Assembly: GCF_044324785.1 (NCBI RefSeq)
Contig: NZ_CP172127.1
Strand: one strand, 5' to 3'
Source: Escherichia coli
GTDB lineage: Bacteria; Pseudomonadota; Gammaproteobacteria; Enterobacterales; Enterobacteriaceae
DNA: 64,000 bases
In this document: one piece after another, positions 7,511 to 7,558 of the stretch
How the letters are laid out: each line of letters opens with the position of its first letter
How positions within the stretch are numbered: position 1 is the stretch's first letter
Program-made: the position numbers and the translations under genes
Notes under the pieces: model-generated
Told to the model about the DNA's origin: nothing
Databases searched by the model: none
The model's input: the letters and a program-made list of their open reading frames with translations, nothing else

Positions 7511-7558
7511 TATCCCTTAATTGTGCATAGTCGCAACAGCATGCACAATTAAGGGATA
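7511..7558. repeat. Perfect 18-bp inverted repeat (tatcccttaattgtgcat / atgcacaattaagggata, 12-nt spacer) in yajQ–panE divergent intergenic region
   Basis: Read directly; arms are exact reverse complements. Confidence 0.9.

Follow-up and report, generated by a model that had tools for sequence, protein, structure and literature searches.

The spacer between yajQ and panE in Escherichia coli contains a perfect palindrome, and its main role is already known: as RNA it folds into a hairpin cleaved by RNase III that stabilises the yajQ mRNA, as published in 2017. The palindrome is read here as a dual-use element lodged where the 5' regions of yajQ and panE overlap, in which an RNA hairpin, promoters and an evolutionary history within the Escherichia lineage are combined; the probability of this reading is placed at about two in three. 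That the same 48 bp carry a yajQ promoter, and probably also a panE promoter, and were assembled in the Escherichia lineage is a modest claim, combining start-site data with deduction.

Positions refer throughout to the window, meaning the whole 64-kb stretch of DNA analysed. The window is oriented opposite to MG1655 (NC_000913.3 coordinate = 452116 - window coordinate; U00096.2 coordinate = 451340 - window coordinate), and the identities of yajQ and panE are borne out by the MG1655 annotation. The yajQ ATG is found at 7433 on the - strand and the panE ATG at 7601 on the + strand, with 77 and 42 nt, respectively, lying between these codons and the palindrome; the 78 and 43 bp given in the original prediction were thus correct within one base. 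The perfect 18-bp palindrome with a 12-nt gap that had been described there is exactly what the sequence contains, 7511-7528 and 7541-7558 being complementary at all 18 positions (100%). The arms have a G+C content of 33%. Among the perfect inverted repeats of the window with loops of up to 40 nt, none is longer, the next-longest arm measuring 13 nt; in each of 30 dinucleotide-preserving shuffles the longest arm was of 9-13 nt, versus 18 nt in the real sequence. No second copy of the half-site was found in the window allowing up to 3 mismatches. The locus carries no annotation in the genome records searched, and the literal palindrome sequence had no match in a full-text search of the literature. 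Two ORFs running over the palindrome, 7319-7552(+) and 7408-7548(-), were treated as spurious, the region being a spacer with mapped transcription start sites (TSSs). The features of the locus are listed in Table 1.

Table 1. Sequence elements of the yajQ-panE region, in window coordinates
Feature	Position	Strand	Basis or remark
Left arm, TATCCCTTAATTGTGCAT	7511..7528	none	18/18 complementary to 7541-7558
Centre, AGTCGCAACAGC, 12 nt, non-palindromic	7529..7540	none	hairpin loop
Right arm, ATGCACAATTAAGGGATA	7541..7558	none	contains the published RNase III coordinate (window 7543)
RNA hairpin, RNase III substrate	7511..7558	-	folds; published in vivo and in vitro cleavage; yajQ half-life effect
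Distal yajQ promoter inside the panE coding sequence; -10 TACAAT (7712..7707), TSS G7700	7700..7712	-	Kim 2012, Cappable-seq, Conway
Embedded yajQ promoter; -35 TTGTGC (7548..7543), 17-bp spacer, -10 CACAAT (7525..7520), TSS A7513	7513..7548	-	
Proximal yajQ promoter; -10 TATTAT (7471..7466), TSS 7458	7458..7471	-	Cappable-seq
Mini hairpin, GTCCTG-CAC-CAGGAC	7495..7509	none	fold, terminator-like scan match, alignment
Putative mirror panE promoter; -35 TTGTGC (7521-7526), 17-bp spacer, -10 CACAAT (7544-7549), predicted TSS A7556	7521..7557	+	sequence symmetry

Folding of the RNA yields a stem of 18 consecutive Watson-Crick pairs, followed past a small internal loop by 2 more pairs, both G-C, predicted within the centre. 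The predicted energy is about -30 kcal/mol (-29 to -31) in either orientation. The stem is near-continuous and extends for about two helical turns, as expected of an RNase III substrate. Stems of 18 bp are at the short end among E. coli RNase III substrates. The hairpin is kept in both the minimum-energy and the centroid structures of the folded distal leader (276 nt for the full leader), and leader folds including it gave z scores of -5.1, -4.2 and -3.2. Transcription through the region is documented by TSS 443640(+), corresponding to window 7700, in two independent datasets, as well as by operon and dsRNA maps.

An RNase III site denominated 'Intergenic (panE-yajQ)' was reported by Gordon, Cameron and Pfleger (2017, mBio; PMC5371410) at MG1655 444573. 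On the MG1655 annotation this position maps to window 7543, inside the right arm; it is the coordinate published for the site, as distinct from the exact cut positions. Reads spanning the site were 48-fold and 32-fold more abundant in the rnc mutant, purified RNase III cleaves the site in vitro (marked 'Y'), and cleavage, which was also mapped by 5' RACE, was placed 'in the 5' UTR of yajQ' (PMC5371410). In the same single study the half-life of yajQ mRNA was about 6 min in the wild type versus about 3 min in the rnc mutant, and the deletion of rnc altered the stability of yajQ only, not of panE. The authors observed that self-complementarity would let RNA of either strand adopt a similar structure, and proposed that the structure remaining after the cut protects the processed yajQ 5' end (PMC5371410). 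The yajQ transcript is also listed among the mRNAs positively regulated by RNase III (PMC9032294). A stable RNA hairpin was one of the options raised in the original prediction; it is the right one, and had been demonstrated in the 2017 study. The added suggestion that both divergent transcripts are affected holds for yajQ, the stability of which changes, but not for panE, the mRNA of which probably lacks the hairpin.

Three promoters direct transcription of yajQ. The distal one maps within panE. Kim 2012 reports its TSS at 443640(+) with 29 reads and a 267-nt UTR; Cappable-seq gives the same position, window 7700(-), as a primary 5' end with a score of 35.9, and in the table of Huang et al. 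the Conway promoter has the coordinate 443641(+), window 7699. The second is embedded in the palindrome. A primary TSS detected by Cappable-seq at 443827(+), with a score of 43.2, corresponds to window 7513(-), and the complete -45..-1 region relative to it is made up by the palindrome. The -10 hexamer sits at -12..-7, with A at -11 and T at -7, and a TTG-type -35 is located within the 16-18 bp range typical of sigma-70 promoters. The 12-nt centre makes up the bulk of the 17-bp spacer, here as in the putative panE promoter. The match to the consensus is 3/6 at the -35 and 4/6 at the -10, and a consensus promoter scan of 7300-7750 returned nothing above thresholds, this promoter included. The region had been predicted to be a divergent promoter region, and on the yajQ side this agrees with a primary start inside the palindrome and with -35 and -10 elements built from both arms. 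The third promoter is proximal to yajQ, with a Cappable-seq TSS at 443882(+), window 7458(-), scoring 63.7; its -10 motif GGTATTATGC is kept in the aligned Enterobacteriaceae genera. Since this start is downstream of the hairpin, the transcripts it generates are devoid of it. Only the transcripts issuing from the distal promoter, among the three, carry the full hairpin. The supplements of the SMRT-Cappable-seq study make no mention of yajQ or panE.

In yajQ-direction RNA the first structure found 3' of the RNase III hairpin is the mini hairpin, which begins at +5 of the transcript starting at 7513. In RNA form (GUCCUG-GUG-CAGGAC) it follows the cut hairpin immediately, and is a candidate for the protective 5' structure. 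It is also the sole terminator-like match in the region, separate from the palindrome. The palindrome was discarded as an intrinsic terminator: the stem is A+T-rich, and the sequences found after it, GCCUUAUUGAAC and CGUCCUGGUG, have no U run.

Because the arms are identical, the + strand repeats the same -35 and -10 hexamers, and the palindrome probably also holds a panE promoter, the mirror of the yajQ one. The heptamer ATTGTGC is at the same time a -35 in one direction and a -10 in the other. The panE 5' end has been located at 7557-7564 by three types of data. The Conway panE transcript starts at 443783, window 7557, overlapping the yajQ transcript for 142 nt (443641-443783), according to the table of Huang et al.; this start rests on coverage-based RNA-seq and dsRNA-IP boundaries rather than on primary-end mapping. 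In the same table the Lybecker dsRNA locus MS-115 spans 443638-443836 (window 7702-7504), is classed as 'Divergent', and has a seed, 443638-443780, ending at window 7560. Finally, sense/antisense duplexes of 21-22 nt captured by p19 (Huang et al.) cover the panE 5' end on both strands up to 443776-443777, about window 7563. All three boundaries fall at the outer edge of the right arm. The panE TSS set by symmetry at about 7556 would fit the 7557-7560 end. The Cappable-seq TSSs used are those of the MG1655 plus strand only, and Kim 2012 lists no TSS for panE. As its mapped 5' end falls on the palindrome's edge, the panE mRNA is probably devoid of the hairpin; panE stability would be unchanged in the rnc mutant because its mRNA would not contain the substrate.

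These overlapping transcripts raise the question of whether the RNase III signal observed in vivo derives from an intermolecular duplex, in which the long yajQ leader pairs with panE mRNA. The 'Divergent' class of MS-115, the 142-nt overlap and the p19 duplexes reaching 443777, as far as the tabulated entries go, are in keeping with this. However, the T7 templates of the 2017 study covered the entire spacer in both orientations, and single transcripts of either orientation were cleaved (PMC5371410), so the hairpin alone suffices for cleavage; these in vitro data speak of sufficiency, and are silent on which natural transcripts carry the hairpin. Moreover, the mapped overlap and the p19 duplexes end at the palindrome edge (7557-7564), and the cleavage coordinate, 7543, is inside. 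The duplex is real for the neighbouring 142 nt and is not needed for cleavage of the palindrome; as the origin of the signal it is very improbable.

The symmetry of the arms had also suggested an operator for a dimeric regulator, which would cover both embedded promoters and co-regulate yajQ and panE. The perfect dyad does overlap both divergent promoters at their -35 and -10 elements, and two regulators offer some likeness. For NtrC a gSELEX peak of 41% intensity is listed at 443,846 (about window 7494), between panE and yajQ, a low-resolution position not individually verified for this spacer. TGCAC motifs occur at 7499, 7523-7527 and 7542, and one TGCACCA half-site for NtrC is present in the spacer region, but the canonical TGCACC-N5-GGTGCA dyad is absent. 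For MlrA, the half-site TTAATTGTGCA matches the E. coli box AAAATTGTACA at 8/11 positions; the consensus is AAAATTGTACA-12N-TGTACAATTTT, and the half-sites found here are 14 nt apart, not 12. Arms of 18 bp are, besides, far longer than typical half-sites of transcription factors, and Citrobacter does not keep them as a dyad, only 11-14 of the 18 arm positions in its DNA complementing each other exactly, while a shared operator should preserve DNA symmetry. Published ChIP-seq or DAP-seq peaks had been indicated as a check; the literature search found no ChIP, DAP-seq or footprint data for the palindrome, and nothing relevant to yajQ in the transcription factor-binding literature. Of the operator proposal, the NtrC peak and the MlrA likeness stand as weak and indirect hints, the MlrA spacing does not fit, and an operator is on the whole improbable.

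Within E. coli the locus is highly uniform. Of 5426 complete genomes, 5424 contain the yajQ-panE spacer in a single copy, with nothing annotated under it, and the 48 nt are identical in 5383 of the 5424 (99.2%), these being raw genome counts uncorrected for phylogeny. The 48 nt are also identical in E. albertii; E. coli and E. albertii are the Escherichia species sampled, the PanE cluster members being otherwise E. coli or Shigella. Over the entire 166-nt spacer, 41% of the E. coli genomes differ at two or more positions. One strain carries an IS1203 insertion in the right arm.

A search for the half-site elsewhere, another of the checks indicated, placed the palindrome at one position per genome in the 5,424 complete genomes; the 'two places' returned for each are the palindrome matching itself on both strands, and the true count is one. 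This bears on the notion that the palindrome is a member or remnant of a repeat or mobile family, be it REP/BIME, ERIC, a MITE or the scar of IS terminal repeats. Compared with Salmonella and Enterobacter, the segment does behave as about 55-60 nt of inserted sequence, with inverted repeats at its bounds. REP, BIME and ERIC sequences were nevertheless ruled out by the single location, by the lack of a second copy in the window and by a permissive Rfam scan of 6800-8600, in which no match was found. A MITE or IS remnant was similarly rejected: the genus alignment shows no target-site duplication at either end of the insertion, a phage collection gave no palindrome match, and the matches in a plasmid collection concern only megabase-sized records, evidently chromosomes. 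The statement that the sequence has no REP character is therefore upheld, and a repeat or mobile origin is hardly credible.

Gene order at panE-yajQ is kept in all the Enterobacterales loci examined, and the conservation expected of the palindrome holds within E. coli and E. albertii but not beyond. The segment is absent from Salmonella, C. farmeri, C. amalonaticus, Citrobacter sp. RHB25-C09, Enterobacter, Leclercia, Kosakonia, Pseudescherichia and Superficieibacter. The spacer measures 113-138 nt in genera and species lacking it, except for Kluyvera, which has a 179-nt spacer with an unrelated insert in the corresponding region. All these, Kluyvera included, keep a conserved GCTATACT or GCTATAAT motif, plausibly the ancestral panE -10. 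A homologous but imperfect repeat is found in the C. freundii complex (braakii, werkmanii, youngae, FP75), the spacer of which is 174 nt long; the repeat is inserted there a few nt downstream of the ancestral panE -10. Alignments thus point to an insertion shared by Escherichia and the C. freundii complex.

The Citrobacter stems include 2-5 wobble pairs, all of which are G.U in panE-direction RNA and become C.A mismatches in yajQ-direction RNA. For panE-direction RNA the predicted energies are -20 to -26.5 kcal/mol, and for yajQ-direction RNA -7 to -18 kcal/mol. In seven related sequences, 87% of the cells pair across Escherichia and Citrobacter, with one compensatory GC-to-AU pair and six pairs changed on one side only, which is weak evidence for a conserved structure. 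The Citrobacter repeat, stable only as panE-direction RNA, would act as a 5'-terminal stem-loop of panE mRNA, as judged from its sequence and position.

The Escherichia locus differs in three respects. The ancestral panE -10, TATACT in other genera, reads TGCACC, and its position is occupied by the mini hairpin; alignments suggest that this promoter element was lost. The repeat is perfect only in Escherichia among the genera compared, possibly through recopying of the right arm from the left: both E. coli arms agree with the Citrobacter left arm at 14-15/18 positions and with the right arm at 11-13/18, a pattern that recopying of one arm from the other would leave. Lastly, the distal yajQ -10 TACAAT is found only in Escherichia among these genera. 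It reads so because of the synonymous Cys codon TGT in panE, a change which would have created the element; nearly every other genus has TGCAAT or TGCAGT at the site, without the A at -11, and Kluyvera has TACAGT. With the distal yajQ -10 gained, the repeat perfected and the old panE -10 lost, the hairpin would now be read in the yajQ direction.

Perfect symmetry could also be a neutral accident, the outcome of template-switch 'quasipalindrome correction' or of inverted duplication, with RNase III cleavage incidental to read-through and no selected regulatory role. Promoter function and RNase III cleavage do not need an 18/18 repeat, and complete pairing of the arms may be a matter of history more than of selection. 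Other genera, Salmonella and Enterobacter among them, manage without the segment, the likeness of both E. coli arms to the Citrobacter left arm fits recopying, the half-life effect is only twofold, and the IS1203 insertion in the right arm is tolerated. Yet nearly all the E. coli genomes, and E. albertii, share the 48 nt unchanged, with SNPs present in the flanks. A long perfect palindrome is as a rule unstable in E. coli, though 18-bp arms with a 12-nt centre are below the classic instability range. The persistence of such a palindrome suggests constraint, and the co-occurrence of the three Escherichia changes looks coordinated. A purely neutral origin is therefore unlikely, though less so than the duplex, operator and mobile-element explanations.

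The dual-use reading can accordingly be formulated as follows. At the RNA level, transcription from the distal promoter yields a leader in which the palindrome folds, and the RNase III cut leaves a processed yajQ mRNA about twice as stable. At the DNA level, the arms supply the same promoter hexamers in both orientations, with a mapped primary start for yajQ and a predicted one for panE, and a polymerase bound one way would exclude the opposite orientation. The most extended version, in which 48 bp do three linked jobs (mutually exclusive mirror promoters, RNase III hairpin, and target of read-through from the distal promoter that would occlude both embedded promoters and couple the outputs of yajQ and panE) and were assembled by three changes in Escherichia from a Citrobacter-type panE 5' stem-loop, is put forward tentatively, as somewhat doubtful.

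The main point being already published, no new question is opened here. What is added is the joining of four separate public datasets into one picture of the locus, the finding that the palindrome holds a primary yajQ start and probably a panE promoter, and an account of why yajQ, and not panE, responds to rnc deletion. Comparison of Citrobacter, Salmonella and Escherichia outlines regulatory rewiring that is clean and recent: an RNA stem-loop seems to have switched its strand of use. If the mirror-promoter reading is true, the locus would be a compact natural case of promoter competition coupled to RNA processing, and possibly a design motif, rather than a new principle.

Among known systems, the closest are leader stem-loops processed by RNase III, such as the adhE 5' UTR (PMC5371410) and the early-mRNA sites of phage T7. 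They share with yajQ a long regular stem in the 5' leader, and the cut raises mRNA stability or expression; the yajQ site is cut in vivo and in vitro. Unlike these, the yajQ stem is a perfect DNA palindrome containing a transcription start, and only the most distal of three promoters yields the hairpin.

As to the DNA level, BirA binds a 40-bp operator at the divergent bioA/bioB genes, and MerR acts at the divergent mer promoters. As in bioA/bioB and merR/merT, two outward promoters would share about 45 bp of symmetric DNA, and by analogy polymerases in the two orientations should exclude each other. Unlike in these systems, no repressor or activator is known for yajQ-panE, and the symmetry covers the hexamers themselves. 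Bidirectional promoters are said to have been described by Warman et al. in 2021, with overlapping -10 elements on opposite strands and TSSs about 18 bp apart. In such promoters too, pseudo-symmetric sequence drives divergent transcription and polymerase binding is mutually exclusive. The yajQ-panE element was nonetheless not assigned to the symmetric bidirectional type of the Grainger laboratory, as presented in the 2026 account (PMC12825309): its starts, 7513 and about 7556, are separated by some 43 bp, each -10 overlapping the other promoter's -35 rather than its -10.

The locus is also included in both collections of dsRNAs from divergent overlapping 5' UTRs (Lybecker 2014; Huang 2020), as MS-115 and cluster 46, the overlap ending at the palindrome. 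Duplexes of that sort involve two molecules, whereas the palindrome hairpin forms within a single RNA. In the ompA leader, studied in the Belasco laboratory, a 5'-terminal stem-loop stabilises the mRNA. The imperfect repeat of the C. freundii complex, which starts a few nt from the expected panE +1, would resemble it. The likeness is proposed for Citrobacter only; in E. coli the start of the panE transcript appears to fall on the repeat's far edge.

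A small hairpin is located directly upstream of the panE Shine-Dalgarno sequence. In most of the other genera compared its arms read CACCTG...CAGGTG, and in several they read CACCTG...CGGGTG, with U.G as the intermediate pair. The stem in E. coli thus carries a compensatory pair of changes, T-to-C and A-to-G, and from the aligned sequences the panE leader hairpin looks like a structure conserved across Enterobacteriaceae. The same leader is covered on the opposite strand, as the long yajQ leader is antisense to the panE ribosome-binding site and to the first ~33 codons. RNase III-cleaved sense/antisense duplexes from the same interval are among the published dsRNA-IP and p19-capture data. 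Given the overlap and the duplexes, activity of the yajQ distal promoter may lower panE expression.

Features located in and around the yajQ-panE spacer, and elsewhere in the window
Feature	Position	Sequence
Inverted repeat, first arm (13 nt)	58-70	TTATTTAGCCGTA
Motif at proximal yajQ promoter	7464-7473	GCATAATACC (reverse complement GGTATTATGC)
Start of NZ_LT883142.1 match (equivalent)	~7487
Mini hairpin	7495-7509	GTCCTG-CAC-CAGGAC
IS1203 insertion point in 13TMH22 (equivalent)	~7550
yajQ leader antisense to panE	7557-7700
panE leader hairpin	7570-7590	CACCCG-GAGTGGTTG-CGGGTG
panE Shine-Dalgarno	7591-7596	AGGAGG

The ancestral panE -10 (TATACT) is replaced in Escherichia by a mini hairpin, scored as terminator-like on the - strand in a terminator scan. 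It includes an NtrC-like half-site, TGCACCA, and a published NtrC gSELEX peak is found nearby. The motif at the proximal yajQ promoter is kept in the aligned Enterobacteriaceae genera, and occupies the same place as the -10 of yajQ TSS 7458, the strongest by Cappable-seq. The second-longest perfect inverted repeat of the 64-kb window has its first arm at 58-70 and a 21-nt loop, the partner arm being found 21 nt downstream.

In E. coli 13TMH22 (NZ_CP019256.1) an IS3-like element, IS1203, is inserted after ATGCACAAT, inside the palindrome's right arm, and cuts panE off from its own upstream region. In NZ_LT883142.1 the spacer match begins only at query position 53, and is found at two places in the genome. 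The partial, duplicated match suggests a further insertion or rearrangement, which would have the palindrome on one side and the proximal yajQ promoter on the other. The spacer of L011, an Enterobacter-like MAG, hosts an extra insert of ~50 nt containing CCTTCCTGCAACTCGAATTATTT. According to an entry in the table of Huang et al., CCTTCCTGCAACTCGAATTATTT also precedes an antisense TSS in E. coli, close to dxs, and on these two occurrences may be a small dispersed repeat.
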